From the IMG/VR virus record IMGVR_UViG_3300029334_000002: DNA of 64,000 nucleotides; one strand, written 5' to 3'. A program made the position numbers and the translations under genes. Of the stretch, positions 23,255 through 46,683 are shown one piece after another. Numbering within the stretch: the stretch's first letter is position 1; every line of letters begins with the position of its first letter. The notes under the pieces were generated by a model. That model saw only the letters and a program-made list of their open reading frames with translations. It was not told where the DNA came from and searched no databases. The DNA is from a virus.

Positions 23255-24008
23255 AGATGCTTCCGCTAATGCCTAAAGCTTCAGCAAGTAGTGTTTTCAG
23301 AGGTTCTGATGGATTCTGATCATTCAACCATCCTAAATAACTATCTGGAATTTCAGAGAGTGGTTCTCCCTTATGTTTGCCGAATGGCATAAGATATGTT
23401 TCTGGTGTAGGTTTGAATTCTTTCATCAGTTCATCTACTTCAGTTTCATCAAAAGATACTGTTAAATCTTTTCTTGATGCTAAATAATCTGCTAAGTGAA
23501 CTATCATCTGACCTTTTGTTTCTGGTAATGGCAGCTCATCTTTACTTCTTTTATCTGTGTTCCATTCACCCATATGTGAGGCGCAACAGTCTGCAATATA
23601 ATCCAATTCTTCATCTGGCAACCATTCAAATCCTTTATAGGATTTTATTCTCTCAGCTATAAGTAATGGGTGTTTAAAAAGAGTATATTGACTGCCATTA
23701 CGCCCAAGTTTTTCATCATCATGGTTCATAATAGCTGTTCGTAGCATATCTCTTTCTCTTGATGTAAACTGACTCTTGATACAATCAATTGACAGCATAT
23801 GATTTAAGAATCTAGTTGCCCCTTTTACATGTTTAGCAAGCCCCATAAAACCAACTGTATAATCAGGGTGATACTTGTTAGTACTTGAAGCAGACACTTG
23901 CCAGAAATATGTAGGCGCAGTATCTAGTAATTCAATACAAAATTCCTGAATATCATCATTTTCAAATACTTCTAATTCTTCCTTAAAAAATCTCTCTGCT
24001 AATGTCAT
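23238..24008 (-). CDS. Hypothetical protein, possible HD-type phosphohydrolase
   Basis: Scattered His/Asp residues (KYHPD, NHDDEK, HLADY) compatible with an HD domain. Weak. Confidence 0.25.
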   Translation of the reverse strand: MTLAERFFKEELEVFENDDIQEFCIELLDTAPTYFWQVSASSTNKYHPDYTVGFMGLAKHVKGATRFLNHMLSIDCIKSQFTSRERDMLRTAIMNHDDEKLGRNGSQYTLFKHPLLIAERIKSYKGFEWLPDEELDYIADCCASHMGEWNTDKRSKDELPLPETKGQMIVHLADYLASRKDLTVSFDETEVDELMKEFKPTPETYLMPFGKHKGEPLSEIPDSYLGWLNDQNPSEPLKTLLAEALGISGSIFEEEE

Positions 24009-25303
24009 ACAGTTTCCTCCTCAATAATTTCTTGTGCCTCTTCCATATCCGGTGTATCAGAGGAATCTTTTATCAATCCTTCAAGGACCTTGAAAGTGAA
24101 ATTCTTGTGTTTATAAGCCTTAAAGCTGCTTCTATTATCAATTCTTACAACTACACCTTCTCTAACATGTGTTACTCCTATTGGATCAGGCCCATCATAG
24201 TATTTTTCTACACGCTCCATAAGATCTTCTTTAGTAGTAAACAGGAATTTATCAAATTCAGGTACATGTTTAACTCCTAAACGATCACACCAATTCTTTA
24301 CTTCTTCCCATGGAATCTCTGTAATAATCCCATCTTCATTGGTCATAGTCATTCTATAAACATAAATATCAGAAGTACCAGGAGTACACCCATAAGAGAA
24401 CACTGTTTCATCACCGTAAAGCTTCTTAACTTCTTTATCTTTAATTTTAGTGTTGGAACAGGTTCCCATAATGGTCTGCTCTGTACCATCAACCCACCCT
24501 ACGATTTCATAAAACACTTCCATTCCTTTTGGCAGTTTGTCAATAAAGTAGTCATGATATTTCTGTCTAAATTTATCATTCCCATAGTAACCGCCTTCAA
24601 ATGTATTGAGTACAACTCTTCTTGTTCCAGTAACTATTTTCCATTCTTTGATAGCAGGAGCCGGTCTACAAAAAAGTTTTTGTAGTAGAGTCTTTTTCTT
24701 AGTAGTTACTTCTATTGCATTTGCTGTTCGACCAGATGTGCCATGCATTTTCAAAGTAATGTAACAAGTATCTCCTGGTTTAAAGGCATTTAAGTTATAT
24801 GCTAACTGTTCTGTATCAGCATGTTCTTTAAAATAAGGAAATTTGTTTTTTAAATTTGGAGTTTTTACTTTCGGACCATTGTTAGATTTTTTATGATTTG
24901 ATCTTGGAATATATTTTTTACAGATAACTGTCCCATCAAGTACAGTAATTTGATCTCCTAAAGATAATTTATTTATATCAGTCCATTTACTAAGAGATTC
25001 TACTGGTAAAACCAATCCTTCTGATTTTTCACCTCGCAGTCTCATAGCTTTAATGTTTCGTTTTACAGGATCAAGATATCCACCTGTAGTTGTTCCATCT
25101 TCATTTTTAATACGCAGTAAATTGTTTTCTTTTGCAAATTCTTCTCCTAGCTGACCATCAACCGGGAAAAATACAACTTTCTGCCCTTCGTAATAACTTA
25201 AATCAACAATAACCGTATTTCCAAAAACGGTACCAAGCTGGAGCCTATCAGCATTGCTGTGTTTACGAAGTTGCTTAAGCTCAGTAATGTAAGCACAATA
25301 CAT
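24005..25303 (-). CDS. ATP-dependent RNA ligase (Rnl2-like nucleotidyltransferase) fused to an N-terminal tRNA-binding (Myf/EMAP-like) OB domain
   Basis: N-terminus KHSNADRLQLGTVFGNTVIV...VFFPVDGQL...RLRGEKSEGLVLPVESL matches the tRNA_bind domain pattern. Ligase motif I ITLKMHGTSG (KxHGT as in T4 Rnl2), motif IV/V REGVVVRIDN and FKAYKHK. Confidence 0.6.
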   Translation of the reverse strand: MYCAYITELKQLRKHSNADRLQLGTVFGNTVIVDLSYYEGQKVVFFPVDGQLGEEFAKENNLLRIKNEDGTTTGGYLDPVKRNIKAMRLRGEKSEGLVLPVESLSKWTDINKLSLGDQITVLDGTVICKKYIPRSNHKKSNNGPKVKTPNLKNKFPYFKEHADTEQLAYNLNAFKPGDTCYITLKMHGTSGRTANAIEVTTKKKTLLQKLFCRPAPAIKEWKIVTGTRRVVLNTFEGGYYGNDKFRQKYHDYFIDKLPKGMEVFYEIVGWVDGTEQTIMGTCSNTKIKDKEVKKLYGDETVFSYGCTPGTSDIYVYRMTMTNEDGIITEIPWEEVKNWCDRLGVKHVPEFDKFLFTTKEDLMERVEKYYDGPDPIGVTHVREGVVVRIDNRSSFKAYKHKNFTFKVLEGLIKDSSDTPDMEEAQEIIEEETV

Positions 25304-25469: not shown

Positions 25470-26027
25470 TTATAAACACGTAGCTCCTCCTGTTATTTCT
25501 TCTAAAGTTCTAGGAGTATAATTCAGCAGCATTGCTCCGACATTATACATTTTACATGGTGTATTATATAGATTTTCCATTTCATACTTTGTTCTTTGCA
25601 TCATATTATTTTCAAAACCTGTATGTACATGTCCATATAAATGGTACCAACCATAGTAATGATTCTTAAAACAAGGAATCGGATAATGACAAAGAATAAT
25701 ACTCTCTTTTGGATTAAGGTATAGTTCTTTATAATCAACTATTTCTACAAATAAATTCTGTAAATCTTTGTTTTTCAGAATCTTATTATCATGATTTCCT
25801 TTTATTAAATGAATCCTACCATTTAACTGGCTGTAATACTCCAATGTTTTAGTTGAACCATACCAACTAATATCTCCTAAAAGATAAACATCATCATCTA
25901 AGCCAACTACTGAATTCCAATTATTTTTAATAGTTTCATCGTTCTCTTCTATTGTCTTAAATGGTCTAGCATCGAATGCCAATGCATTTGTGTGACCAAT
26001 ATGTAAGTCTGAAATATAATAATTCAT
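25470..26027 (-). CDS. Calcineurin-like metallophosphoesterase
   Basis: Motifs DLHIGH, GDISWYG and GNHD. Confidence 0.6.
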   Translation of the reverse strand: MNYYISDLHIGHTNALAFDARPFKTIEENDETIKNNWNSVVGLDDDVYLLGDISWYGSTKTLEYYSQLNGRIHLIKGNHDNKILKNKDLQNLFVEIVDYKELYLNPKESIILCHYPIPCFKNHYYGWYHLYGHVHTGFENNMMQRTKYEMENLYNTPCKMYNVGAMLLNYTPRTLEEITGGATCL

Positions 26028-26398: not shown

Positions 26399-27181
26399 CT
26401 ACTCCTGTAATTTTCGTGCTGAATAACAAATTTCTTTATATTTCATAACTGCATCATACACTTCATCTGGAATTATATTTTTATATTGTTTGACGACAAT
26501 TTCTATAATTTTCTTTTTAGCAATGTTATATGAATTACTTGCTTCCTCTTCTGACTCGAAACGTCCCAAATAAATTTTTTCTCCATTAACTCCATTGCAA
26601 CTTGCTATATATGCTCCGGACTTTATTTTTTGTACTCCTAAAGCATAATTACCTCTATCATTTTTTCTATCTAGCACAATTGTATTTAATCTATGGGGTA
26701 ATAACAAACAGGTGTCGGGACTATATATTTTATTTCCAATAACTTTTATATCTTTGTCCAATTCAAGTGAGTCGTCCTTTGATAAGATATATTTATGTTC
26801 GCTGTACCATTTTGCAAAATTTTGATAATTTTTCCATTCGTCGCATACATAGCAATCAATATAATTTTGATTTTTAATATATTTATCGCTATAACATCTT
26901 GTTAACATAGATCCCCATTTTGTATATTCTTCTGTATGAGAAACACCAACTTTAGTTTTAAAAGGGCCATAACCTCTATAACCAACACCTAAATAAGTGG
27001 GAATATTATAGTTTATAATATTTCCTTTTTTGAAATATTGATAATAAGTGTGTCTCACAATAATTCCATCTTCGAATTGGATATCAATATCGTGGACATT
27101 TTTATATCTAATAATTTGCATCTTTAATCCTTGTTTATTAATATTTTCTTCTCCGGTTCGGTCTATTTTTTGCATAGTCAA
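26399..27181 (-). CDS. Putative free-standing homing-endonuclease-like protein (AP2-type DNA-binding domain plus HNH-like region)
   Basis: KIYLGRFESEEEASNSYNIAKKK matches the AP2 domain signature. LELDKDIKVIGNKIYSPDTCLLLPHRLN resembles the HNH cores of phage HEGs. Confidence 0.35.
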   Translation of the reverse strand: MTMQKIDRTGEENINKQGLKMQIIRYKNVHDIDIQFEDGIIVRHTYYQYFKKGNIINYNIPTYLGVGYRGYGPFKTKVGVSHTEEYTKWGSMLTRCYSDKYIKNQNYIDCYVCDEWKNYQNFAKWYSEHKYILSKDDSLELDKDIKVIGNKIYSPDTCLLLPHRLNTIVLDRKNDRGNYALGVQKIKSGAYIASCNGVNGEKIYLGRFESEEEASNSYNIAKKKIIEIVVKQYKNIIPDEVYDAVMKYKEICYSARKLQE

Positions 27182-28023
27182 TTCACCCTTATAATCTGTT
27201 CATACAAACAAATATCCTTATCAGAAACTGCAAGATTTTGATGATAATGTCCAAAAATATTTTTTCTATAATCAACATTACATCTGATCTCTTCCAAATA
27301 ATCAGTTAGCTTATCCGGTTTATATAATCCATGTGATAATAATGCTGCTGTAGAAGAAGCTGTACAATGCGTTAGGATAAAATCTACTTTATTATCATGT
27401 TCTGCCAGGTTCTTTATACCTTCATCCATCTCTTCTTGATTCGGCATTTCTCGCTCCCACCATGAAATGTGATTAATTCGGTACATTTTATCCGGATCAT
27501 CTCTCCATTCTTTTACTCTTGGATCATCAATCTCTAATACTCCATCTGAAATATCATGACTGGCAGCTCCACCAAAAGTAAAGAATTTTAACCCGTCTAT
27601 ATCAAATACCTGTCCTCTCATAAGATGAATTACTGATGGTTTAATAAAATGTACCTTACCACCATGCCATTCTTCTACCGGATAAGCATCTAATATATCG
27701 TAACATTCATGATTTCCGTCAATAAAGAGTGTTGTGAAATGCTTCTCTTCAAGCCAATTCAGATACCACCTTTGCTGCGGTGAATCTCTCCATATCCCAA
27801 AATCTCCAAGAACAATTACATAATCTTCTTTAGTCATCTCTCTTTGTTCCGGGAACGAGTCCATATTTAATCTATGGATCCAACCCCCATGTGTATCACC
27901 CGTAATCCAAATTATTTCCACCACCTCCAACAATATGTAGCAAATGAAAATCCTACAAGAATCATGAAATATGCTATAGGTATCGCGAAGAACATTTTCA
28001 TAATTGAAATTAGTAAAATACAC
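27178..28023 (-). CDS. Calcineurin-like metallophosphoesterase (Ser/Thr phosphatase or 2',3'-cyclic phosphodiesterase type)
   Basis: Motifs IWITGDTHGG, VLGDFG and GNHE. The real start is probably downstream of the annotated one. Confidence 0.6.
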   Translation of the reverse strand: MYFTNFNYENVLRDTYSIFHDSCRIFICYILLEVVEIIWITGDTHGGWIHRLNMDSFPEQREMTKEDYVIVLGDFGIWRDSPQQRWYLNWLEEKHFTTLFIDGNHECYDILDAYPVEEWHGGKVHFIKPSVIHLMRGQVFDIDGLKFFTFGGAASHDISDGVLEIDDPRVKEWRDDPDKMYRINHISWWEREMPNQEEMDEGIKNLAEHDNKVDFILTHCTASSTAALLSHGLYKPDKLTDYLEEIRCNVDYRKNIFGHYHQNLAVSDKDICLYEQIIRVN

Positions 28024-28154
28024 AGGTTTAATTTTTTATCTGCAATCATATTTAATATTGTTACTACTGGCAAAAGCATTAACTTCCAACCACTACATAT
28101 AGCTCCAATTACTCCACATATAGCAGAAATCCATCCCATGGTTTGCTTAATCAC
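27912..28154 (-). CDS. Small membrane protein (2-3 TM)
   Basis: Hydrophobic 80-aa ORF that overlaps the probably over-extended 5' end of the phosphoesterase ORF. Confidence 0.3.
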   Translation of the reverse strand: MIKQTMGWISAICGVIGAICSGWKLMLLPVVTILNMIADKKLNLCILLISIMKMFFAIPIAYFMILVGFSFATYCWRWWK

Positions 28155-28549
28155 TTAATTCCTCCTAAACTATCAATCCATTGTTTTACCTTGCCATTAT
28201 CATATGTTTTTGTAATCAATACGGCAGACACTGTTTGCCCTATTCTTCCATGATATTTACGATATGTACTTTCATCATTAAGTGAATATTCAGTTCCGTT
28301 ATAATTTACCGTAATTTCGTATTCAGCATAATCAGTTCGAAATTGCGGAACATGATTAACCATACCTGTAAAACGGGTTTCTTTAGGTTTATAATATTCA
28401 TTTACAACTGTGACCTTCACGCTTTCCTCTTTTTTATCAATGCATTTAGCGCAACCAGTTAATGTTGAAATACTTATCAATAGAACTCCTAAAATACTTA
28501 ATACTTTCTTTTTCATAAACTCTCTCCTACATTTGTAGTTAAGGTCCAA
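28151..28549 (-). CDS. Lipoprotein
   Basis: Signal peptide plus lipobox LTGC. Confidence 0.5.
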   Translation of the reverse strand: MDLNYKCRREFMKKKVLSILGVLLISISTLTGCAKCIDKKEESVKVTVVNEYYKPKETRFTGMVNHVPQFRTDYAEYEITVNYNGTEYSLNDESTYRKYHGRIGQTVSAVLITKTYDNGKVKQWIDSLGGIK

Positions 28550-28731
28550 TCCTTCTGAGTTCCATAAGGATAAGAAGTTCCATAAGGATAAGAACCATAT
28601 GTTATAGTATTATCCTCAGTAGTTTCAGTTCTGGTCGTCTCCTCAATAAGATGGCCTTCTTTATCATATTTTTTAGTTGTCTCCGTAATCGTAGTTTTTA
28701 TCATTGTACTCTCCTTATATTGACAAACCAC
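28513..28731 (-). CDS. Small Thr-rich protein with an SYPYGT repeat
   Basis: ORF only. Confidence 0.2.
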   Translation of the reverse strand: MVCQYKESTMIKTTITETTKKYDKEGHLIEETTRTETTEDNTITYGSYPYGTSYPYGTQKDWTLTTNVGESL

Positions 28732-29026
28732 CTCACCTAAAGTACAATACTATTGATCCCAGGTCTGTACCGGGTGAGGATCTTCTGAATGGGTAATGTG
28801 ATATGGGATTGTATCACACATTATTTTTGAAGGAGGTGTTGCCTATGGTAGCAGATATCATAACTATACTTACTTGCTTTGGTCCAACATTACAATTCGT
28901 AGTTGTTAACGTTATCCTCACCTTACGCAGCCACCTCTTTATTACTGACGCAAAATCCCTACGCTACCGTCAGTGTGGTATATGTCCATGTCCACAGTTC
29001 TCACTATACGTTACCCTCATTATTAA

Positions 29027-29998
29027 TTATTTATTTTCAACAGTTGCTATATTGCCTGATGTTAATTCTCCTGCGTCAACAATTGTTGCAGCATTTCCAC
29101 CTTGTACCTTCGGCACATCACCATTCCACTTATCAATCTTCTGTTTCTCAATAAGTTCTGGAGTAAGTGACTCAGCGATCTTTTTATTTGCTTCTGCTTC
29201 AGCATCCGCTTTAATTCTTGTAGCTTCAGCTTTACCTTCCGCAGTGATTTTCGCCTGTTCAGCTTCAATAGCGGCTTTCTCTTTATCCTGCTCCGCTGCG
29301 ATGAGAGCAACTTCCTTATCTTTATCTGCCTGTACCTTTGCAGTCTTAGCTTCAATATTTGCAAGTTCCAGTTCCTGCTGTGCATTTACTTTCTTCTGAA
29401 TAGCAGCCTGAGTTTCATCATCTGTAGAAATTGAAGTAAAGTTTACAGTATCAATGATGATTCCATATGGCTCAAATTTCTTTTTCAAGTATTTGTCAAG
29501 TGCTTCATTCAGTTCCTGGCGTTTATCACCAAATACATCTGTTACCGGATACTTAGCAGTTACTTCCTGTGTCCACGCTTTCATCTTTGGTTTAATGAAA
29601 GTATTTTTTACACTTTCTCCGGACTGACCTTTAAATCTTGTAAATACATCAGCAACTTGATCCTGATCGAACTTATAAGAGAATTCCAAATCAACAAGAA
29701 GCTGTTTCCCATCTGCGGTAGGAGTTTTAAAACTCTCATCTTTTGGTGAATCACCTTTATCTTCTGAAGTCAGATAAGACTGTTCAATACCAATTGAATA
29801 CAGTGATGTTTTTACTGTAGGTGAAATCAAATTCCATCCCTGTGAAAGAGTATCTTTTGAAATTCCACCGTTCATCTTGTATTCTACAGCTACATAACCA
29901 GCAGGAACTCTTACTGTGCACTTTGCTACACAAATTAATCCTGCTGCAATTATTACTGCTAATCCAACCCCACCTAAAAAACCTTTTTTCTTTTTCAT
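29027..29998 (-). CDS. SPFH / band-7 (stomatin-prohibitin-flotillin-HflC) membrane protein
   Basis: N-terminal TM anchor, band-7 core, and a C-terminal Ala/Glu/Lys coiled coil (IEAKTAKVQADKDKEVALIAAEQDKEKAAIEAEQAKI). Confidence 0.65.
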   Translation of the reverse strand: MKKKKGFLGGVGLAVIIAAGLICVAKCTVRVPAGYVAVEYKMNGGISKDTLSQGWNLISPTVKTSLYSIGIEQSYLTSEDKGDSPKDESFKTPTADGKQLLVDLEFSYKFDQDQVADVFTRFKGQSGESVKNTFIKPKMKAWTQEVTAKYPVTDVFGDKRQELNEALDKYLKKKFEPYGIIIDTVNFTSISTDDETQAAIQKKVNAQQELELANIEAKTAKVQADKDKEVALIAAEQDKEKAAIEAEQAKITAEGKAEATRIKADAEAEANKKIAESLTPELIEKQKIDKWNGDVPKVQGGNAATIVDAGELTSGNIATVENK

Positions 29999-30186
29999 TA
30001 CTCATTCTCCTTATCTTTTTCTTTATTTTCTTCTCTGTTTATTTCGTCTACTGCATCTTTCCAAATTCTATGCAAGAATCGTCCGAATGGATAAAACAGT
30101 GCAGATAATAGAAACCATAAAATTACTGCTCCAACCAATACTAAAAATACAAATACTGGATTCATGCTCTCTCCTTTATAATTCAA
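29998..30186 (-). CDS. Small membrane protein
   Basis: Hydrophobic ORF coupled to the SPFH gene. Confidence 0.3.
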   Translation of the reverse strand: MNYKGESMNPVFVFLVLVGAVILWFLLSALFYPFGRFLHRIWKDAVDEINREENKEKDKENE

Positions 30187-30427
30187 TACCTTCCATAACA
30201 GCTCTAGCTTCTAAAATAGCTAAATAATTTGCCATAGCATCAATCTGAATATTATAAATGCTTCTTGGGCATGTTGGCTCAAAACTAAGACTTCCATTGT
30301 CCCATTTAAAAAGTATAGACTGCAAACCTCTGAATCTAAGCATTAACTGGTAATATTCAGCTTTGAATCTCTCGTTATAATCTGGGCTAACCATCATTTC
30401 TGTTGTTTCTTTTAATGTTTTTACCAT
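30176..30427 (-). CDS. Hypothetical small protein
   Basis: ORF only. Confidence 0.3.
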   Translation of the reverse strand: MVKTLKETTEMMVSPDYNERFKAEYYQLMLRFRGLQSILFKWDNGSLSFEPTCPRSIYNIQIDAMANYLAILEARAVMEGIEL

Positions 30428-30576
30428 GTTATTTGTCTCCTTTATATTCTTTAATATTATTTACAAATGTCCAAGTGAAAAAAGCTACTAGCATTAAACT
30501 AAATAAATTTTTATAAGTAATAAGATCTACTAATGATATTGCTATAAAAATAGCATCAAGAATGATAAAAAATATG

Positions 30577-30999
30577 TTAAGTTTCATTTAATTCATCTCT
30601 CACTCTCATAAGTATCTTCCCAAGCCTATTTTCTCCAACTCCATCTACAGTTCCCCAAATAGTATCTCCCCAAGTATTACCCTCTTCCAGATGCTCGTTT
30701 CCTGTAGCAAGTAATTTTTCCTTAAGGTCTGGATTCTGAGTGAATTTAGCCAGTACAATTTCATACATTACTTTATCTTTCACTTCTTCCCAATCTGATC
30801 TCAAATCAATCTTTCTACCTGCTGCCTTTGCCTCTGATGGGCTAGCTTGAGAAAATAACTGGAATTTTAGTCTACGATTTTTTGTTTTCTGTGCTTGAAA
30901 AGCTGCTTCATTATTTGTATAGTCCCATCCGTTATAACTTACCGGTGCCATATAAAAGTTACTTAAAAAGTAATAATCTCCAGTAAAACTATTAATCAT
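30577..30999 (-). CDS. NADAR-domain protein (YbiA/DUF1768 family; N-glycosidase / ADP-ribose-processing)
   Basis: GDYYFLSNFY near the N-terminus (NADAR hallmark GxYxxLSNF), a conserved W/E pattern, about 140 aa. Confidence 0.65.
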   Translation of the reverse strand: MINSFTGDYYFLSNFYMAPVSYNGWDYTNNEAAFQAQKTKNRRLKFQLFSQASPSEAKAAGRKIDLRSDWEEVKDKVMYEIVLAKFTQNPDLKEKLLATGNEHLEEGNTWGDTIWGTVDGVGENRLGKILMRVRDELNET

Positions 31000-31010
31000 T
31001 TTTCTCCTTC

Positions 31011-31193
31011 CTAATAATCACTACAAGTTACTGTCAAACTTACAAATCCATCATTTTGCTCAAAAGATGTAATAAACTCATCTTTTACCAATTCTTCTAC
31101 TATATCTCTGTCAGTTATTTTTGCTCCAATTAATTTAGGATCAGTCAAGTCGTATTCAGCTTCTACAGTGATCACTCTTTTTGTTGGTGCCAA
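31011..31193 (-). CDS. Hypothetical small protein (TTG start)
   Basis: ORF only. Confidence 0.25.
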   Translation of the reverse strand: MAPTKRVITVEAEYDLTDPKLIGAKITDRDIVEELVKDEFITSFEQNDGFVSLTVTCSDY

Positions 31194-31426
31194 AATTTCC
31201 TTTTCACATGCGTCATCAATTGGTTTATTTAATATTCGTTTTCCTCTTTGCGTAATATCACCTCCATATTTTATTTCATTGTTTAACCTCCTTAAGTGTA
31301 GGTGAGGAATTGAACCCCACCTTAACCTTTTGTTACTACACTTATTTTCTCTTCCCTACAAAGAATCCAACTAAGAAACAGGTTAATAAGCATACTACAA
31401 ACACGCCTATATTTAACACTATCATT

Positions 31427-32173
31427 TTATTTGCCTTTCTTTGTTTTCAGTTCCTGCAACTTTTTATTAATTTCATCATCTTTCATTTTCTTATCCAGAC
31501 GCTGTTTTTGCACAATAGTAGAACTTTCATAAACGATCCTAGCTCCATCAGCAGCCTCTTTTTGCTTTTTAACTCCGTCACGTACTTTCTCTAGCATCTT
31601 TTCCTCTTCACTAGAAGATACTCCCGGTGTTACATTAAAAGCTTTTGATGCCTGAGCTGTTTCCAAAGTTAAAACAGCACTTTCTTTTTCTGCTTTTAAA
31701 TCATTAAGCTGTTGCTGTAATACTTCTACTTTTTCTTTCTGTACGTCAGCATTCTCTTTCCATTCTTTTAATGTACTCTTAATAAAATCAATCTTATCAT
31801 TCAGCTCCTGTTGTTCTTTTAAGTAGACTTTTGCTGCTTCGTCATCTCCTCGATCCACACAAGCATTTACATTTACATCTGCTTTCATGGCATCTTTCTT
31901 CAAATGGAACAGGTCATCTTCATAATTGGAAATCTTACCAAGCATCTGTTGATATCTTACATTTTCCTGCTGAAGTTCATCTTCTTTCTTTTCAATAGCA
32001 GCGTTATAATAAGCTTTAGCTCCCTCAGGGGTGGCTGCATCTTTTTGAATTGCTTCGTCTGCTGTACCAGCAACTCTAAGTGACACTCTCTTACCAATTT
32101 GAGTTGTACGTGCAATAAATAACACAATACTAATTACTACAGCTATTAGGACCACAATTTCAAATAAGTTCAT
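31427..32173 (-). CDS. PspA/IM30-like coiled-coil protein with an N-terminal TM helix
   Basis: N-terminal hydrophobic helix, then a PspA-like coiled coil (CVDRGDDEAAKVYLKEQQEL resembles the PspA ALQKGDEDLAREAL segment). Confidence 0.45.
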   Translation of the reverse strand: MNLFEIVVLIAVVISIVLFIARTTQIGKRVSLRVAGTADEAIQKDAATPEGAKAYYNAAIEKKEDELQQENVRYQQMLGKISNYEDDLFHLKKDAMKADVNVNACVDRGDDEAAKVYLKEQQELNDKIDFIKSTLKEWKENADVQKEKVEVLQQQLNDLKAEKESAVLTLETAQASKAFNVTPGVSSSEEEKMLEKVRDGVKKQKEAADGARIVYESSTIVQKQRLDKKMKDDEINKKLQELKTKKGK

Positions 32174-32811
32174 TAGTCTCTCCCCTCATCAATATCAAGC
32201 CCAAAGTTTTTAAACAGTTCTGTCATACCTCCCACATAACCGGAACCTAATGCCTGGAATTTGAATCCATCTCCGTAACGGTATAATTTACCCATTTCTA
32301 CTGCATTCAATTTTTCAAAGTTCTCATTCTCAGACAGATCATATTCATACTTATCACCATCTGGATTGTCGTAATCACAAATTGTCATAACTGCATTGGA
32401 GACCATTCCAAAGTTCTGCATACGCTGTAATGCCCTAAAAATTGTTAAGCAGATAGTAAATTCTGTTTTATCTTTCGGGAATGTGTCAGCATGTACAATA
32501 AAATATTCGTCATAATGCTTTCCATTAAAAATCATTCCCTGAGAATCATCACCAGTTTTATTGTCTCCTGAATAATCTACCCAAGGATATGCAGACCCAT
32601 CTTCATAGGTTTTATAGTTTACTAAATCTTCTGGGTATACTACTTTGCGACTTGAATCTGTTAAAAATCCATTGATATCAAAGTCAATATCTGCTTCACC
32701 AGCATAACGGTTCTGATCCCAATTGACTCCAATGAAGAAGTTCTTAATACCTGTACCATCCTCTTTTACCATACTAATTTTCTGATTTTTGCTCATGTTG
32801 ATTACTGCCAT
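32173..32811 (-). CDS. terD: TerD-family protein (tellurite-resistance / Ca-binding TerD domain)
   Basis: MAVINMSKNQKISMVK...IGVNWDQN, GDNKTGDD, FGMVSNAVMTICD and FKFQALGSGYVGGM align along the whole length with E. coli TerD. Confidence 0.8.
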   Translation of the reverse strand: MAVINMSKNQKISMVKEDGTGIKNFFIGVNWDQNRYAGEADIDFDINGFLTDSSRKVVYPEDLVNYKTYEDGSAYPWVDYSGDNKTGDDSQGMIFNGKHYDEYFIVHADTFPKDKTEFTICLTIFRALQRMQNFGMVSNAVMTICDYDNPDGDKYEYDLSENENFEKLNAVEMGKLYRYGDGFKFQALGSGYVGGMTELFKNFGLDIDEGRD

Positions 32812-32828
32812 ATCTCTTTATCTCCTTT

Positions 32829-33596
32829 TTATTTATTATTCAGCCAGTCTTTATACTGACGAAGAATCTCTGTATATAACTGTTCATCAGACATTTTATT
32901 CATGTCTTTTACTGCTGTAAAACCGGTGTTATCATGTTTTCTACCTTTCATATTGTCAAGGGATTTTAAATAACCAAAATCTTCATCCCCAATTCCTATG
33001 AACTGTACAAAGATGTTGTACTCTGAAAGCTCTTTAATAACTGCATTGGTGGCAGAAGTGTCACTGTTCTCACCATCTGTAATAAAGATGATAAATGCTG
33101 GAATCTCACTTGGCTCGATATCTTTATAATATGTAACCATTTCTTTCAATACAGGAGCATAATTAGTACCACCCATATACATATGAGCTTTTTTCATAAC
33201 ATTTTTAACATAACTACTATAATTATCAGCGTTAGCAGCTTTTAAGCGCTCCGCTCCATTTGAGAACAACCAACTCTCAAGTTCTCCATTATCGTCAAAT
33301 CTTAGAGCAATAGGCAACAAACGAGAAATGGTTTCCTGTACAGATCCATTATCATACAGCCAATCCATACTTCCTGAATAATCCATTGCAAGAGCTACTC
33401 TAGCTGTATGTTTTGTCATATCAATCTTGCTTCCCTTAGACATATCAATAAGTACTTTGCCAAGATTTTCACTGTGCTTAGACATATCAATTGTCTGTGA
33501 CTTTTCTTCATATACAGGTTGCTGAGTTACAGCAGAAGATAACTCTACTGCTGCTTCCTCATCTTTTTTTCCGAATAGTTTTCCCAAAAATCCCAT
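32829..33596 (-). CDS. von Willebrand factor A (vWA) protein, TerY/TerF-C-like
   Basis: MIDAS motif ALAMDYSGSM and a vWA core (FIIFITDGENSD). It sits immediately next to terD. Confidence 0.65.
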   Translation of the reverse strand: MGFLGKLFGKKDEEAAVELSSAVTQQPVYEEKSQTIDMSKHSENLGKVLIDMSKGSKIDMTKHTARVALAMDYSGSMDWLYDNGSVQETISRLLPIALRFDDNGELESWLFSNGAERLKAANADNYSSYVKNVMKKAHMYMGGTNYAPVLKEMVTYYKDIEPSEIPAFIIFITDGENSDTSATNAVIKELSEYNIFVQFIGIGDEDFGYLKSLDNMKGRKHDNTGFTAVKDMNKMSDEQLYTEILRQYKDWLNNK

Positions 33597-33597
33597 T

Positions 33598-36219
33598 TTA
33601 GTTACTTCCTTTCTTACAAATTGTTTTTCTAATCCAATCTACAGGTACAACCATAAATGCTGTCACAAGGACTACAATCCACTGTTTAACATCCATTGGA
33701 GTTGTCTGTACTAGATTTCCTACAAAGTTACACAAAACTACAGCCATTGCAAAAATACCTAATGCGATATACACAAATAATTTATTATTTTTAATTCCTT
33801 TGAAAAGATTCATACTATCTGTTCTAATAGTGAATCCATTAAATACTGCCATTAAACACAATAAAGCGAATCTCGCTGTCATAGCCGAAAGTTTTGTTGC
33901 AAACATATTTCCAACTGGACCAAATGTAATTACACCAAATAAAGCAATAAATACAATTGAACTTAATGCAATTCTCCCTTTCGCTCCACGGATAAATAAT
34001 CCGGATCCTTTCATGATAGGCTCTTCATTCATATATTCCTCTTTTGGCGGTTCTCCACCAAAGCTTAATGAGTTAAGTGAATCCATGATGATATTTACAA
34101 TAAGGATCTGAACTGCTGCTAATAGAGCAGAGCCACCAGAAATAATTGGAAATACCATACTTAAGATCAACAACGAAATATTGATAGGCAGCTGGAATTC
34201 AAGGAACATCATAATGTTATGCATAAATGTTCTACCAAGTTCGACTGCCTTTACCACACTTGCAAAATTATTGTCTGTCAAAACAATATCTGCAGCTTCT
34301 TTTGCTACATCAGATCCGTCTTGCATTCCAAAGCCTACATCTGCTTTCTTTAATGCGGGAGCATCGTTCACACCGTCACCGGTCATAGCAACAGACATCC
34401 CAATTTCTTGTGCTAATGTTACAAGACGAAGCTTTGTATTTGGTGAACATCTGGAGATTACTCTTAACTGTGGAATAATTTCTTTTACTTTTACATCTGA
34501 CATTGCCTCAAACTCATCATTGGTAACTGCTAAGTCTCCAGGCTTATAAATGCCAGCTTCCATAGCAACAGCCTTAGCAGTTTCCATACAGTCACCAGTA
34601 ATTTCAATTACCTGAATTCCAGCTTTATGAGCAATTTTTACTGCTTCTGGAACTTCATTCCTAACCGGGTCAACAACTCCAATGATTCCAAGGAGATTCA
34701 TTTCATCGGGGAGACCATCATCAGTTTTATCTGAGATAGTCAATGCAATACATCTCATTGCCTTCTCTGTTAATCCCTTAATATGGCTCTTTAAAGCTTT
34801 TCTTTTTTCTTCTGTCAGCTCAGTTACAATGCCATCATTATCAAGATAAAATTTACACTTCTCAATTAATTTCTCTGGTGCGCCTTTATAAACAGTAAAA
34901 TCATTTGCTCCATTATTTAAAGTAACTGCAGAGAATTTATTTTCACTACTAAATGGAACACGTTTCTTCATGATAGCTTTATTCTGTATTTTTTGTGCGT
35001 CTTCAGGAGAAAGCATATCAAACACTGCTCGATCAATTGAATTCCCACCAGTGATATTCCCATTAGAATCAAACACTGCACTATTATTCATACAAATGTT
35101 TAAATCAATTAGCTCGTTGAGCGAACTTTCCTTATTAAAAATATCCTGACAGTTACCGTTAATCATAACTGTAGAAGTCATTTCACCTGTTGTGAGAGTT
35201 CCTGTCTTATCCGTACAAATTAAATTAACATACGCCAATTCAGGAATTTTACCAGTATTCTTCGCAAGAATATTGAATTTTTCCATTGTCGATACATTCT
35301 GTTTAGTTACAAGTTTTACAATGAGTGGCAGACCTTCCGGTACAGCCGCAACAATAATTGTCAATGCATTTGAGACATTCTGTGCTACCTTCTGAATACT
35401 TTCAAGAATACTTCCTGAGAAATACTGACTTAAGCTTCCAGCATTTAAGATACCTGTAATTGTCATAATTACAAATGCTAATGCTGCCGCAATTGTTCCC
35501 CATTTTGAAATAAAATCACACAAATGATCCAGAGCAATATCAAGAGCTGTCTTAGGAGGCTCTAAAGTCTGCATTTTGACAAGAGTATCACCATTAACTG
35601 TATTAACACCAACATCTGTAACAATCATTTTTCCTTCACCAGACATGATAACTGTTCCTGCAAAGAGAGAACACTGATCCGTATATGCAGTAGTTGATGT
35701 TGTTTTAACATGCTTATAATTAGCACTAGGAATTTTTCTACATTCTTTTGTCTCTCCATTGATAGCGGCGTTATTAACAGAAATTTCTCCATCAACAATA
35801 AATCCATCTGCAAAAATCTCTTGTCCAGTTCTCAATAGAACTAAATCACCTACTACCAGATCATCTTTATTAATTGTCTGTACGCTTCCATCTCGGACAA
35901 CATCACAATATCTAACTGCCGTTTTTGCTCTTAGCTCTGCTGCAGATTTCTGTACGCCTAGACCTGTCTTAATAGCAATTCCAGTAACAATAGCTAAAAC
36001 CACTATAATCATTACAGGTTCAGAAAGAGACATTACTCCCATAGCTCCTAAAACCAACTGAAACAAAGCAATTATTATTAGAATCATAGTAATTGGTTCA
36101 GTTAATGCCTCCTTAGCAAAATGATACCATTTCTTCAATTCAGGCTCCGGAAGCTTATTACTTCCATATGTAGTCCTACTAACCTCTACTTCGCTACTTT
36201 TTAATCCATTAAAATTCAT
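33598..36219 (-). CDS. P-type cation-transporting ATPase (type II, Ca2+/Mg2+-like)
   Basis: Phosphorylation motif DKTGTLT, hinge TGDGVNDAPALKKADVGFGM, an N-terminal cation_ATPase_N-like region and about 10 TM helices. Confidence 0.8.
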   Translation of the reverse strand: MNFNGLKSSEVEVSRTTYGSNKLPEPELKKWYHFAKEALTEPITMILIIIALFQLVLGAMGVMSLSEPVMIIVVLAIVTGIAIKTGLGVQKSAAELRAKTAVRYCDVVRDGSVQTINKDDLVVGDLVLLRTGQEIFADGFIVDGEISVNNAAINGETKECRKIPSANYKHVKTTSTTAYTDQCSLFAGTVIMSGEGKMIVTDVGVNTVNGDTLVKMQTLEPPKTALDIALDHLCDFISKWGTIAAALAFVIMTITGILNAGSLSQYFSGSILESIQKVAQNVSNALTIIVAAVPEGLPLIVKLVTKQNVSTMEKFNILAKNTGKIPELAYVNLICTDKTGTLTTGEMTSTVMINGNCQDIFNKESSLNELIDLNICMNNSAVFDSNGNITGGNSIDRAVFDMLSPEDAQKIQNKAIMKKRVPFSSENKFSAVTLNNGANDFTVYKGAPEKLIEKCKFYLDNDGIVTELTEEKRKALKSHIKGLTEKAMRCIALTISDKTDDGLPDEMNLLGIIGVVDPVRNEVPEAVKIAHKAGIQVIEITGDCMETAKAVAMEAGIYKPGDLAVTNDEFEAMSDVKVKEIIPQLRVISRCSPNTKLRLVTLAQEIGMSVAMTGDGVNDAPALKKADVGFGMQDGSDVAKEAADIVLTDNNFASVVKAVELGRTFMHNIMMFLEFQLPINISLLILSMVFPIISGGSALLAAVQILIVNIIMDSLNSLSFGGEPPKEEYMNEEPIMKGSGLFIRGAKGRIALSSIVFIALFGVITFGPVGNMFATKLSAMTARFALLCLMAVFNGFTIRTDSMNLFKGIKNNKLFVYIALGIFAMAVVLCNFVGNLVQTTPMDVKQWIVVLVTAFMVVPVDWIRKTICKKGSN

Positions 36220-36221
36220 TC

Positions 36222-37256
36222 TTAAATCTCTCCTAATACAATTCTTTCATTGACAGACATTACAAATTCTTCTATAGCTTTATAATTTGGTTTATCAGGC
36301 AATAAGGTATTCTTTGAATCATACTCAAGTCTTTTCTCTAACTCGTTTACCATTTCAAAAAATTCTGGGATAGGCTGACTGTTTGCATCCAAATATTCTC
36401 CATTACGTAGAGCCATAAGAAGCTCATGATCATCTTCTCTATATGTAATAATTTTGCCTTTTTCAAGAATATCAAAACACATAAGATACAATCTCACTAA
36501 ATGGCACATATGCTTTCCTAACTTATTATGTTCTATGGCATGCTTATTTCTCTTCCCAATTCTGGAATAATCCCTAATAATGTTTTTCATTTCGGCCCAC
36601 ATCCCCTGATAATCATTCAAAGGATAGTGCTTCAACTGGATATCCATAAATACTTCTGTTTCATAATCTTCCTGAATACCTTTATCTACATAAAGCTTTA
36701 TTGCATCTTCTGGAAAATTGAAATACTTTTCAGGGAAAGTATAAAAAGCATTCATAATACTATTAAGAACATGCTGCATTCTTTCTTCTTGTCTCAATTT
36801 CCTGGCAGCTTTATTATCAAGCCTTCTTAACTGGCTTGTAGCATAGCCTCCAAAAGAATAGATTGCTTTCTTAGATAAAAACATTTCAGCATTATCAAGA
36901 AGTTCTTGACCAATTGGATGAATATAAAGATAATGTTCTGGCTTCAATCCTATCAGCTCAATTGTGTTTGGGTTGCAGTTTGACAATAGAGTTATCAATT
37001 TATTAAAAGAATAGATTGTTGTATCTGTTGTTTCTTCCGTTACCTGATCAAAATTATGTGTAGGAATCAGGATTTCTTCTCTTTTATTTAAAGCACAACC
37101 CCTAATATCCAGATCGGAGTTTTCTGTATCTGTACCATAAGCATGAGACCCACCTAAGCCTAATAGAATTATGTTACTCCCCAGGTGCTCGTTCGCTCTT
37201 AAGAAATCATAGTGTTCACTTTTCAACAATTTTTTGATTTTCTCTATTTTCATCAA
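36222..37256 (-). CDS. Pol-beta superfamily nucleotidyltransferase
   Basis: GLGGSHAYGTDTENSDLDIRG fits the G[GS]x9-13[DE]h[DE]h minimal-NTase signature. Confidence 0.45.
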   Translation of the reverse strand: MMKIEKIKKLLKSEHYDFLRANEHLGSNIILLGLGGSHAYGTDTENSDLDIRGCALNKREEILIPTHNFDQVTEETTDTTIYSFNKLITLLSNCNPNTIELIGLKPEHYLYIHPIGQELLDNAEMFLSKKAIYSFGGYATSQLRRLDNKAARKLRQEERMQHVLNSIMNAFYTFPEKYFNFPEDAIKLYVDKGIQEDYETEVFMDIQLKHYPLNDYQGMWAEMKNIIRDYSRIGKRNKHAIEHNKLGKHMCHLVRLYLMCFDILEKGKIITYREDDHELLMALRNGEYLDANSQPIPEFFEMVNELEKRLEYDSKNTLLPDKPNYKAIEEFVMSVNERIVLGEI

Positions 37257-38724: not shown

Positions 38725-39870
38725 TTACATGTCCTCCATTGAATAAATTACTTTTTCTAAGCTTCTTTTTGATTTGAAACACTTCTTAAGCAAACACCAC
38801 ATAATGGCTTTTTCAGTATCATCTTCGTCTTCCCAATCATTTAAGACTACAGAAGTCTGTGTTCCATCTTTGAACCCTACAGTAGTTCTAATTTTTCCTG
38901 TAGCAATATCTTTTGTTCTTCCTACAAATGTGATATCATCTTTCGAAAGTGTTTTACAAACCTGTTTATCAGTTTTATTTTTAGGTACAATATATACATC
39001 AATGCCTAAAGCATCTTTAATCTGGCGCTCACAGCTTCTAAGCTCTTCTCCAATAGTATGCTCTTTTTCTTTTTTCGCTACTGCTTTTTCAAGTGCTTTT
39101 AAAATCTCATCTGGTGACATATTCATATCTGTTTTCTCCTCTTTATAATTAAAATACTGCATTGGTTTCAGTTTAAACTTATTTTTTGTATGTAAACGAT
39201 CAATCCGTCTTTTAATTTCCGGATCATCGCAAATACCTGTACGAATATATCTATCTAATACTGCATAGGTAAATCCGAAGCTATCTTCATCTGATTTACC
39301 GCATAACCCATCTGATGGTGTTTTCTCTATATATTTTTTAGGTAGTCCTAAATAATAACCGATTCTTTTTACTTCACTCTTTGTGAACTGAGCCAACGGT
39401 GAAAAGTCCCCTGCTGCGTCACCATATCTAGTGGAGTATCCGATGTAATCCTCAGAAAGATTACATGTATTAACCACTCTTCCATTGTGTGACTGTGACA
39501 CCCCGTATAGAGTGGTCATTCTTAGTCTAGGAGCGAGATTAATTAATGTCTGATCTGTTACATTAAATGCAGCATCAATTTGATCAATAATATCATCATA
39601 GGCAGATCCAACATTGATAGTAAGATAATCAATCCCCAATACATGCTGGCAAATGTCATATGCCACATCAATATCATCCTGTTTATAGTTCGGCATGATT
39701 ACTCCGAGAACTTTGTCAGCTCCAACGGCTTCCACACATAGCTCAGCAGCTACTAAAGAGTCAACGCCACCGGAAATACCTACTATGAGATTACATCCAG
39801 GACCATTCTCTTCTCTCCAATCTCTAATCCACTGAATACAATCATTTGTTGCTTTTTCTACATTAAACAT
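38725..39870 (-). CDS. nadE: NadE-like PP-loop amidotransferase/synthetase (NAD+ synthetase family) with a C-terminal extension
   Basis: PP-loop LIVGISGGVDSLVAAEL followed by VLGVIMPN, the NadE-type arrangement. 381 aa, against about 275 aa for typical NadE. Confidence 0.55.
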   Translation of the reverse strand: MFNVEKATNDCIQWIRDWREENGPGCNLIVGISGGVDSLVAAELCVEAVGADKVLGVIMPNYKQDDIDVAYDICQHVLGIDYLTINVGSAYDDIIDQIDAAFNVTDQTLINLAPRLRMTTLYGVSQSHNGRVVNTCNLSEDYIGYSTRYGDAAGDFSPLAQFTKSEVKRIGYYLGLPKKYIEKTPSDGLCGKSDEDSFGFTYAVLDRYIRTGICDDPEIKRRIDRLHTKNKFKLKPMQYFNYKEEKTDMNMSPDEILKALEKAVAKKEKEHTIGEELRSCERQIKDALGIDVYIVPKNKTDKQVCKTLSKDDITFVGRTKDIATGKIRTTVGFKDGTQTSVVLNDWEDEDDTEKAIMWCLLKKCFKSKRSLEKVIYSMEDM

Positions 39871-40405
39871 TCTGCTCCTCCAATTTCCACAGTTCTACTT
39901 CAAAACTACTTAATTCTTCTTCTATAATCTTATAAACCACTTCCCAGTCTGCTCCTCCTCTTCCGCAGCCTATTTTATATGGGAGTGCAATGGTTGTCTT
40001 GTGAGGTCTGTTATCAGCATCAAACCAATAAACAGGTATTTGTTGTCGAATAAAATTTAATCCTTCTCGAAAAGCTTTAACATCAGTATACTGTTTTCCA
40101 TCATATCCATACTTGTCTTGTGCAAATAAGGACAATATCTCTTGATTTTTCCTTCTGATAAAGTACTCGTCATATGTTCCAAGAAGTAATTCTGGATTAA
40201 ATTCACGTAATTTACAAACGTTTCTATAATGTATATAAATACCTTCGTCATAATCTCTTAATGCTTTAGCAACTCCAGTATTCATTTCTCCTTGGCAATT
40301 AACTTGATGAATTATATAATCGGTCTGTGCATCTACAATGTTACCTTCAATAATTTTAATCATAAATCTTTTCCTATAAATCCTGAAATGTAAACTTCTC
40401 GCCAC
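39863..40405 (-). CDS. Macro-domain protein (ADP-ribose binding / hydrolase)
   Basis: IIEGNIVDAQTDYIIHQVNCQGEMNTGVAKALRD matches the macro-domain N-terminal signature (GDIT...DAIVNAAN...GGGVA). Confidence 0.6.
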   Translation of the reverse strand: MARSLHFRIYRKRFMIKIIEGNIVDAQTDYIIHQVNCQGEMNTGVAKALRDYDEGIYIHYRNVCKLREFNPELLLGTYDEYFIRRKNQEILSLFAQDKYGYDGKQYTDVKAFREGLNFIRQQIPVYWFDADNRPHKTTIALPYKIGCGRGGADWEVVYKIIEEELSSFEVELWKLEEQNV

Positions 40406-40775
40406 AGGAGCAAATCACTTCTCCAATAGTTCCGATTGATGTTGGTGTAAAGCACCATGTAAGAGAGCCGCCTATGCAACCATGTCCCATTGCTCTCTGT
40501 TCCATAGTTTTCAAACCATGTTTCTCAGCATCATGTTTTAATTCCCACTCTCTGATTTTCTCTTGTTCTTTTTCTGAAATTGGAAATCCTCTATACAGAT
40601 CCTCTTTTGCTTCTTTTAACTCGGTTGCCATTCTCTGCATTTCTGAATCTTTATAATGCTCATCTTTGAGTTTTTTATTTTCTTCTTCCAGATACTCAAT
40701 ACGTCTCTCTTTGTCAACTGTCTTGTCAATAATTCCTTGACAAAGATCTGAGATTGATGCGTTAAAAAAATTCAT
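40374..40775 (-). CDS. Hypothetical protein
   Basis: ORF only. Confidence 0.3.
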   Translation of the reverse strand: MNFFNASISDLCQGIIDKTVDKERRIEYLEEENKKLKDEHYKDSEMQRMATELKEAKEDLYRGFPISEKEQEKIREWELKHDAEKHGLKTMEQRAMGHGCIGGSLTWCFTPTSIGTIGEVICSCGEKFTFQDL

Positions 40776-42242: not shown

Positions 42243-42610
42243 TATTTTTTATCCTCCTCTTTGTCATTTACAATTTTATCAATCTGATCTGTGATATAAT
42301 CAACTACATCTTTACCAGTTTTGCCAATTGTTTGAATATTATCTGGTGTGATTTCATTTACAACTGCCATCGTATATATTGTTTCTGTATTAGGTGTCAT
42401 GATTGTAATGATAGTCATTACAACACATCCGATAATTAATTTGCTAATAGTTTTTCTAAACTTAAATGGTTCGTTATATCCGGTTAATCCAGCAAATAAA
42501 GCACACATAGCAATAACTCCGCATATTCCTGCGATCATTCCAAAAAATGTTGTTAAATTATCTGCTCTACTAGCAGAATAAATCAACCAAGGACTAATAA
42601 TCGGTTTCAT
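42242..42610 (-). CDS. Small membrane protein
   Basis: Several hydrophobic helices. Confidence 0.35.
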   Translation of the reverse strand: MKPIISPWLIYSASRADNLTTFFGMIAGICGVIAMCALFAGLTGYNEPFKFRKTISKLIIGCVVMTIITIMTPNTETIYTMAVVNEITPDNIQTIGKTGKDVVDYITDQIDKIVNDKEEDKK

Positions 42611-42623
42611 ATTTTTATCTCCC

Positions 42624-43816: not shown

Positions 43817-43869
43817 TCCAAATCTCCTTATAATCTATTTCTTACTGTTTAATAATCCTTACTTAACTT

Positions 43870-44331: not shown

Positions 44332-44332
44332 C

Positions 44333-46642: not shown

Positions 46643-46683
46643 GATAAATACCTCCTGAATTTTAAACTTTAATTTAATTGCCT

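Follow-up and report, generated by a model that had tools for sequence, protein, structure and literature searches.

The function of the Ter protein family has been obscure for decades; resistance to tellurite, colicin, and phage, the binding of Ca2+, and "membrane-linked metal recognition" have all been tied to the family. The ter cluster of plasmid R478 confers phage inhibition as well as resistance to colicin and tellurite. In Bacillus subtilis, the PspA-YdjGHI system joins PspA to an SPFH partner in the pspA-ydjI operon, and in eukaryotic wound repair, Ca2+ influx acts through Ca2+-binding adaptors, e.g., copines, on ESCRT-III, while plasma membrane Ca2+-ATPases (PMCA) clear the Ca2+. As cited in PMC8123226, TerD was shown experimentally to bind Ca2+ and a Streptomyces terD gene influences calcium homeostasis; phage-inhibition and colicin-resistance phenotypes of classical ter clusters are cited in PMC12054061 and PMC8123226. 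Vipp1 and PspA are ESCRT-III-type membrane-stabilizing polymers, as worded in the titles of their PDB entries, and a physical interaction with the PMCA-type pumps ACA8/10 is known for plant copines, which combine C2 (a Ca-binding beta-sandwich) with vWA (PMC6032332). Moreover, Ca-ATPases are known from Jug phages, from a further 81 huge gut phages, and from four phages of 159 to 197 kb (PMC12880540, 2026; preprint 2025). The Jug phages, which transcribe their Ca-ATPase highly, have terD genes too, one beside a pspA-like gene (PMC12880540). Here, we describe a locus in a 64-kb stretch of the IMG/VR virus record IMGVR_UViG_3300029334_000002; the whole stretch is called the window, and its region 28151-37256 was examined. 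As the original prediction had proposed, this phage carries a Ter-type set (TerD and a TerF-like vWA protein), a PspA-like protein, and a Ca-type P-type ATPase of its own.

The functional unit of the region is a translationally coupled cassette of four genes, spanning 4.8 kb on the minus strand (31427-36219). It begins with the Ca-type P-type ATPase (33598-36219, 873 aa; E1-E2_ATPase, Cation_ATPase_N/C, and HAD in Pfam), followed by a TerF-like/copine-type vWA protein (32829-33596, 255 aa; PF10138, 3e-60; Copine, 2e-10), a TerD-domain protein (32173-32811, 212 aa; PF02342, 2e-34), and a PspA/Vipp1-like protein anchored by a transmembrane (TM) helix (31427-32173, 248 aa). Only 1 nt separates the ATPase and vWA genes and 17 nt the vWA and terD genes, while the terD and pspA-like genes overlap by 1 nt. 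To survey synteny, 28 window proteins were placed on 80 related viral loci, 72 of which are informative, extending for 5 kb or more beyond the pump gene on its downstream side. All but one of these (71/72) show the pump, then one or more TerD genes, then the PspA-like gene. Two variants occur: variant A, with vWA and TerD as in the window (28/72), and variant B, in which three tandem TerD genes encoding 190 to 193 aa replace vWA and TerD (43/72). Purifying selection acts on all four genes, the ratio of nonsynonymous to synonymous substitution rates (dN/dS) being ~0.07 for TerD, ~0.13 for vWA, ~0.15 for the ATPase, and, at unsaturated dS, 0.06 to 0.10 for the PspA-like gene. At equal pump divergence (65 to 72%), PspA-like identity is 49 to 64% in variant A and 34 to 39% in variant B. 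PspA-like identity thus follows the TerD/vWA variant and not the pump, which suggests that TerD/vWA and PspA co-evolve.

The original prediction had taken the 9 kb as a single island. Its gene list was borne out, with all genes at the predicted positions on the minus strand and with profile searches recovering the SPFH, NADAR, TerD, vWA, P-type ATPase, and RlaP proteins, but only the four genes of the 4.8-kb cassette are syntenic, the RlaP, NADAR, SPFH, and lipoprotein genes varying in position or being absent in related loci. RlaP lies within 10 kb of the pump in 41 of the 80 loci, on either side; SPFH does so in 14/80 at variable positions, and in locus L077 directly after the PspA-like gene; NADAR and the lipoprotein were found in 11/80 and 10/80 loci, respectively. 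The SPFH gene and its small TM partner (29027-30186) are therefore a loosely associated accessory outside the invariant cassette. Relatives of a metallophosphoesterase gene of the window (27178-28023) recur close to the cassette in 20/80 loci. In a prophage within a 3.69-Mb contig (L177, 10846-12154), a LemA-family gene and a 254-aa open reading frame (ORF) come after the cassette instead of the SPFH pair, and this LemA-family gene is another membrane-associated add-on. A 250-kb record, IMGVR_UViG_3300029402_000234, holds two whole cassettes (L004 and L020) whose pumps are 99% and 71% identical to that of the window; the assembly may have joined two related phages, or the prophages may lie in tandem.

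The pump is predicted to be a type II Ca2+-type (PMCA/LMCA1-like) P-type ATPase. Its best PDB matches are Arabidopsis ACA8 (8.6e-105) and Listeria LMCA1, with SPCA1 and PMCA1/2 also matched, and its top NCBIfam match is the PMCA-type Ca pump family TIGR01517, at 506.5 bits, half a bit under the cut-off of 507.05 bits. ACA8 and LMCA1 align with the pump at the motifs ICTDKTGTLT, TGDGVNDAPALK, AVPEGLPL, and VNIIMDSL, and DKTGT, the hinge TGDGVNDA, M4 PEGL, and the PMCA-like M6 VNIIMDS are conserved in ~165 pump sequences. As far as these alignments can tell, none of the motifs that single-site Ca2+ pumps have for catalysis and at the ion site is missing from the pump. The TGES loop of the A domain reads NGET in the window pump and NGET or NGES throughout the lineage, chromosomal bacterial homologues included, with the Glu and Gly retained; to our knowledge, no described P-type ATPase subgroup has a TGES to NGE[TS] change.

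The window TerD matches the Ca2+-binding Klebsiella TerD (KP-TerD, 2kxt) at 1.2e-22. Its loop retains GDNKTGDD, and an 8-aa insertion replaces the acidic GDGDDE, a motif that, in our alignment, is intact in full in the variant-B and bacterial TerDs. The vWA protein has a DYSGS motif of the metal ion-dependent adhesion site type and a conserved N terminus, MGFLGKLFGKK; its best PDB match, a weak one, is the Arabidopsis copine BON1 (E = 0.057). We do not claim that this N terminus forms an amphipathic membrane-targeting helix, its hydrophobic moment being modest (0.32).

The PspA assignment, weak by sequence, is backed by the fold. The PF04012 score of 29.7 bits is below the gathering score of 33.9, while some homologues carry a precomputed PF04012 match. 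An AlphaFold (AF2) model built on 13 homologues has a TM helix (residues 3 to 25) followed by a helical hairpin (residues 49 to 177) at a confidence (pLDDT) of ~90. In a Foldseek search with this model, the 16 best PDB matches were all Vipp1/PspA, and superposition on Escherichia coli PspA (4whe) gave a root mean square deviation of 1.6 Å over 116 columns. The protein is thus predicted to have an ESCRT-III fold, with a cytoplasmic helical hairpin anchored in the membrane. It belongs to a small family, with 151 representatives retrieved at E ≤ 1e-3 from 1.84 billion; the members share the motif TPEGA, an N-terminal TM helix is present in 81 of the 86 that are full length, and only one weak match to the protein was found in 50,697 phage records.

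The bacterial context of the pump was drawn from a genome scan and from the TerD of an "unverified bacteriophage" record (MT836648), which is 87 to 88% identical to Blautia/Ruminococcus TerD and lies in Blautia-like chromosomal DNA; an initial search for ATPase homologues was saturated with near-identical sequences from the gut and reached no distant relative. The chromosomal, yce-type Ter cluster of Blautia and Ruminococcus runs MarR, PRTase_2/TRSP, StiP/PELOTA, C-C lyase, rhomboid, YceG, TelA, three TerDs, ATPase, and HAD, its ATPase being an 878-aa Ca-type protein whose best matches are, again, ACA8 and LMCA1. Gene-order comparison thus shows that the phage and the bacterial loci both couple TerD to a Ca-type ATPase in different layouts. 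In each, TerD paralogues directly adjoin a Ca-type ATPase of identical domain architecture, and a helical membrane-associated protein lies beside the TerDs. However, the phage order is inverted, with the pump first; the gene at the TelA position is PspA-like, encoding a TM-anchored protein instead of TelA; the branch comprising YceG, StiP, PRTase_2, C-C lyase, and the HAD biosynthetic genes is missing; and variant A has in addition a copine-type vWA and a divergent TerD. The "complete" Ter module of the original prediction did not stand, since the window is without TelA, YceG, StiP, or PRTase_2 homologues and without a TerC-like polytopic protein. In tblastn searches, Blautia-type TelA (E ≤ 0.01), PRTase_2, StiP, and YceG gave no match in the window, no island gene has a TerC match in Pfam, and the ATPase is the sole minus-strand window ORF of at least 100 aa with at least three TM-like segments. 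TerB had no match among the ~40 window proteins run against Pfam, a set that does not cover every small ORF.

The phage pump is only 32 to 34% identical to the Ter-cluster ATPase but 63 to 71% identical to stand-alone chromosomal pumps of Ruminococcus and of Oscillospiraceae metagenome-assembled genome chromosomes. The neighbors of these closest cellular pumps are housekeeping genes (phosphoglycerate mutase, DnaB/DnaI, LeuA, AsnA, and pilins), with no TerD, vWA, or PspA gene near them, while variant-B phage TerDs are 52 to 62% identical to those of the bacterial cluster. Since the phage uses a different pump lineage, its TerD-pump association was probably assembled independently of the host cluster. 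TerD-pump coupling thus appears, from these identities, as a recurrent neighborhood that was rebuilt in this phage clade with a nonorthologous pump, and two independent associations of this kind argue for a common function. In IMG/VR, 27 contigs likewise carry pumps related to the Ter-linked one, adjoining TelA, YceG, and TerD. A 4.5-kb fecal virome fragment (MT840059.1, L181; G+C 0.59), either phage or bacterial, has a Ca-type pump, 35% identical to the window pump and 44% to the Ter-linked pump, followed by three TerD genes, so that the TerD-pump linkage reaches a very different lineage.

These comparisons bear on whether the four genes work together at all. The pump could instead be an auxiliary metabolic gene that resets host Ca2+ for replication, with TerD, vWA, and PspA forming a separate stress set that shares nothing with it but the operon. 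Such a resetting of host cytoplasmic Ca2+ in favor of replication was proposed for the Jug-phage pump, which lies in an operon with a small unrelated protein while terD and the pspA-like gene are elsewhere (PMC12880540); the closest cellular pumps stand alone, as described above, and a related pump paralogue is found in other phages (L197-L208) without an adjoining TerD. We nevertheless consider independent functions unlikely, given that 71/72 loci keep the pump with TerD and PspA despite the shuffling of their neighbors and despite the swap between vWA plus TerD and three TerDs, and that bacteria join three TerDs to a different Ca-type pump.

The absence of TerC bears likewise on the transported ion. 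If the pump exported Mn2+ (or Mn2+ and Ca2+) in replacement of TerC, the cassette would serve metal homeostasis or metalation and not Ca2+ signaling. Both the phage cassette and the Blautia-type Ter cluster are without TerC and have the pump at the position of a membrane transporter, the Phapecoctavirus phages combine TerC with a TelA-like gene and a vWA-TerF gene, the PMR1-type (Ca/Mn) family is the second-best NCBIfam match of the pump (410 bits), and TerC is reportedly a Mn2+ exporter according to B. subtilis MeeF/MeeY work. This reading seems distinctly improbable to us all the same: the best matches are Ca2+ pumps (ACA8, LMCA1, and PMCA), the M4 PEGL and M6 N..MD residues agree with single-site Ca2+ pumps, and TerD is experimentally a Ca2+ binder (PMC8123226). 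An Rfam scan covering the window, a related locus (L027), and the bacterial cluster L185 found no riboswitch, e.g., for Mn2+ or Mg2+, close to the pump.

The window belongs to a temperate phage of Lachnospiraceae (Blautia) that is SPbeta-like and abundant. On its lower-coordinate side, the region is flanked by RNA ligase, AAA_24/Sak4-like, DnaB-like helicase, PD-(D/E)XK nuclease, DNA polymerase (Pol) III alpha, RecD2, and ribonucleotide reductase genes. The gene order of this replication side follows yorG-H-I-J-L of Bacillus phage SPbeta, to whose YorL the Pol III alpha is 48% identical, and the Pfam domain Phage_SPbeta_YorH was found in the related prophage L177. The higher-coordinate side has NadE, a DarG-like macrodomain, NAMPT-like, Prs-like, and PncA-like isochorismatase genes, tRNAs, an NAD-dependent DNA ligase, and tyrosine recombinases. 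In total, 85 of the 92 window ORFs retained by greedy selection are on the minus strand, and G+C is even (0.29 to 0.37). In IMG/VR, the pump has 157 relatives of 65 to 100% identity on contigs of 100 to 250 kb, the same arrangement being seen in more than 150 viral contigs; one 100%-identical pump protein, named from Blautia wexlerae, is present on 207 contigs. Megablast of the 9-kb region against the 50,697 phage records found no nucleotide similarity to any cultured phage. The cassette also occurs in prophages within bacterial contigs of 0.5 to 3.7 Mb, such as a 499-kb scaffold of the isolate Ruminococcus sp. AM36-2AA, and the PspA-like protein has relatives named from Blautia faecis in contigs of up to 3.7 Mb.

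The NCBI labeling of the pump as a B. wexlerae protein and the relatives in large bacterial contigs might suggest a host chromosomal island, in misbinned or flanking sequence, rather than a phage-borne locus. This is extremely improbable, and we regard it as effectively refuted: phage genes flank the region on both sides, with SPbeta synteny and the YorH domain in L177; the G+C content is uniform; more than 150 viral contigs of 100 to 250 kb have the same neighbors; and the chromosomal Ter cluster of the same bacteria has a different layout. The placement inside the phage therefore held. The view that the locus is unusual stood only in part, the Ter-type set being truly phage-borne but the pump being fixed in a very abundant gut phage clade and phage Ca-ATPases having already been published. 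Three tyrosine-recombinase/integrase genes were seen in the 64 kb (365-1627 on the plus strand; 52746-53657 and 54903-55910 on the minus strand), and the L177 homologue of the gene at 52746-53657 carries MrpR-type domains.

We propose, with a probability of about one in two (~0.5), that the cassette is a Ca2+-linked membrane-integrity module; a role in membrane stress or Ca2+ had been suggested in the original prediction and seems the most reasonable reading. In this model, divalent cations would enter through lesions of the envelope and be sensed and bound by the cytoplasmic TerD/vWA proteins, whose targets would be the membrane-tethered PspA-like polymer and perhaps also the pump, so that the bilayer is stabilized or sealed, while the pump would bring cytoplasmic Ca2+ back to its resting level. 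The infected cell could thus be kept energized during a long replication cycle and be protected from abortive-infection effectors that form pores, from bacteriocins, or from premature lysis. The cassette lies in the early/replication arm, co-oriented and contiguous with early/replication genes in a co-directional array of at least 60 kb, and its neighbors are counter-defense genes for NAD+ reconstitution, ADP-ribose reversal, and RNA repair; because of this position among early and counter-defense genes, we favor a role in lytic growth.

Several points weigh against this proposal. Conserved adjacency is no proof of physical interaction. The Ca2+ binding of the window TerD itself is uncertain because the acidic GDGDDE is lost, the vWA-BON1 match is weak (E = 0.057), and the PspA assignment rests on the fold, a profile search of PDB sequences giving only E = 0.13. 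As regards the transported ion, the TIGR01517 score of the pump is below the cut-off, its second match, PMR1-type (Ca/Mn), reaches 410 bits against a cut-off of 798, and its TGES loop reads NGET. Moreover, no PADLOC defense model matches any of the four cassette proteins, and the promoter/terminator scan gave counts equal to those in shuffled sequence, so that operon boundaries cannot be set from such signals; reading the intergenic gaps 31194-31426 and 28732-29026 gave nothing decisive. A TerY-P triad (vWA with PP2C and Ser/Thr kinase) was considered and rejected, as were the other known defense systems: neither the vWA protein nor its neighbors have a PADLOC match, the cassette has no kinase or PP2C domain in Pfam, and the nearby phosphoesterases are calcineurin-like Metallophos proteins.

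A benefit to the lysogen, rather than to the lytic cycle, was also weighed. A cassette expressed from the prophage could guard the lysogen against superinfecting phages, pore-forming bacteriocins, and chemical stress, like the ter genes of plasmid R478. The phage is indeed temperate, with its three tyrosine recombinases and its integration in bacterial contigs of 0.5 to 3.7 Mb, the phage inhibition and colicin resistance given by classical ter clusters (cited in PMC12054061 and PMC8123226) would fit, and the host maintains its own Ter cluster, which implies a function useful to the cell. On the other hand, the host already has that cluster, the cassette continues the early/replication array with no promoter or terminator signal of its own above background, its neighbors serve counter-defense and not defense, and PADLOC found no match, TerY-P included. 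Lysogenic conversion or defense thus seems possible but rather doubtful.

Similarly tentative, and drawn by analogy, is a more specific form of the membrane-integrity proposal, in which the cassette would be a self-contained phage system of Ca2+-triggered membrane repair, a counterpart in prokaryotes to the wound repair of eukaryotes: the TerD/vWA sensor would activate the membrane-tethered, ESCRT-III-like PspA protein and regulate the pump, thereby neutralizing pore-forming abortive-infection effectors. We consider it unlikely in this full form. If true, it would give the TerD family a concrete biochemical role and define a new anti-defense class.

The remaining genes of the examined region are all on the minus strand. 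A lipoprotein gene with an LTGC lipobox, read from the sequence (28151-28549), precedes in coordinates a prohibitin-like SPFH/Band_7 gene (29027-29998; PF01145, 3e-23; Prohibitin-1, 1.7e-7) whose product has a membrane anchor (TM segment at residues 7 to 25) in addition to the Band_7 domain. Beside it lies a gene for a small TM protein (29998-30186), followed by a second one (30429-30587), each with one TM segment by hydropathy, a NADAR gene (30577-30999; Pfam, 1.5e-29), and, past the cassette, an RlaP/Pol-beta nucleotidyltransferase gene (36222-37256; Pfam, 1e-15). Two calcineurin-like metallophosphoesterase (Metallophos) genes (25470-26027 and 27178-28023) are directly downstream of the region. 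Although RlaP abuts the pump, it probably stands outside the Ter cassette because it fits an RNA-repair set: the window also encodes an RNA ligase (24005-25303) and a polynucleotide-kinase-like protein (48673-49605), and these three genes suggest a tRNA/RNA repair function.

A dense NAD+/ADP-ribose gene set, to which the NADAR gene adds, occupies 38725-44881. It comprises NadE (38725-39870), a DarG-like macrodomain (39863-40405), a NAMPT-like phosphoribosyltransferase (PRTase) (40776-42242; NF006629, 459.6 bits, above the cut-off of 405), a Prs-like protein (43013-43816; TIGR01251, 88.8 bits, sub-threshold), and a PncA-like isochorismatase (44333-44881). The Prs-like and NAMPT-like genes are separated by 771 bp, in which two small genes lie. 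The original prediction had linked these PRTase genes to the Ter systems; they are present downstream, but they belong to an NAD+ cluster and to the NAPRTase/NAMPT and Prs families, whereas the PRTases of bacterial Ter clusters are of the PRTase_2/TRSP family. From its domain content, the set looks like a phage pathway of NAD+ reconstitution (NARP1-like) with reversal of DNA/RNA ADP-ribosylation (bioRxiv 10.1101/2024.02.11.579819; PMC12774641). The Prs-like and NAMPT-like genes fit the phage NAD+ reconstitution of bioRxiv 10.1101/2024.02.11.579819 and may represent a NARP1 pathway (Adps and Namat), of which adjacent PRPS-like and NAMPT-like genes are a mark. In the L197-L208 contigs mentioned above (IMG/VR, 141 to 176 kb; G+C ~0.31), a paralogue of the Ter-linked pump, 46% identical to the Blautia Ter-cluster ATPase, lies ~3 kb downstream of a Prs-like and NAMPT-like pair and has no TerD near it, so that a second lineage, too, has a pump beside NAD+ genes. 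In the window, a gap (45480-47494) that separates the NAD+ genes from an ATPase gene holds four tRNA genes and a RAGATH-27 small RNA motif (45910-45997; 89.5 bits). Finally, two ORFs (14113-16677 and 11893-13281) share the YorL-type Pol III alpha between them, and a NUMOD4 homing-endonuclease-like ORF (13360-14004) lies in the middle, which makes an intron or a mobile insertion likely there.

Taken as a whole, the cassette looks like a stripped-down, independently assembled copy of the host Ter stress cluster. The Ter problem is thereby reduced to a clonable 4.8-kb cassette of a pump, metal-binding proteins, and a membrane-remodeling protein, in which the phage version of the TerD-pump coupling gains a membrane-anchored ESCRT-III-like partner. 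The likely host genus, Blautia, is among the commonest of the human gut, and at least in this abundant gut phage clade the Ca-ATPase is part of a fixed module and not a lone metabolic gene. If the module shields infected cells from membrane-targeting defenses, it would represent a new kind of phage counter-defense.

Compared with PspA/Vipp1/IM30, the phage protein has the same helical-hairpin ESCRT-III fold, the same predicted cytoplasmic location at the membrane, and, often, an SPFH protein close by; unlike them, it has a TM helix (residues 3 to 25) in place of the amphipathic helix alpha0 and forms a small, distinct subfamily with a sub-threshold Pfam score, and no PspB, PspC, or PspF was identified among the genes scanned. 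In Arabidopsis, BON1/2/3 with ACA8/ACA10 likewise pair a Ca2+-binding beta-sandwich and a copine-type vWA with a PMCA-type pump, and ACA8 and BON1 are the best solved matches of the phage pump and vWA protein (E = 0.057 for BON1); this is an analogy only, since in the phage TerD and not C2 would bind Ca and the parts are separate polypeptides. Ter genes are known from cultured phages (339 phage records have vWA-TerF and 18 have TerD), with carriers such as the Phapecoctavirus phages (TerC, TelA-like, and vWA-TerF) and Caulobacter, Rhizobium, Bacillus, and Lysinibacillus phages (TerD). The Phapecoctavirus set is built on the same principle, with a cation exporter, a metal-binding vWA/TerD protein, and a helical membrane protein, but no inspected record adds a P-type ATPase or a PspA-like protein.

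We found no paper describing a pump-TerD/vWA-PspA cassette, in a search that did not reach Anantharaman, Iyer and Aravind 2012. A phage Ca-ATPase as such is not new (PMC12880540, published 2025/26): the Jug and huge gut phages also encode a Ca-type P-type ATPase and carry terD, and Bacillota-like pumps are mentioned there for the smaller phages of 159 to 197 kb. The Jug pump, however, is in an operon with a protein of 77 to 91 aa, no link of it to terD or pspA being described, and the Jug hosts are Bacteroides/Phocaeicola and their genomes 360 to 402 kb, whereas the phages considered here are SPbeta-like, temperate, and of ~100 to 250 kb. In these phages, the pump, TerD/vWA, and PspA-like genes form one fixed cassette, and what adds to the published work is this fixed four-gene unit, its swap between vWA plus TerD and three TerDs, and the independent re-creation of the TerD-pump link of the host.

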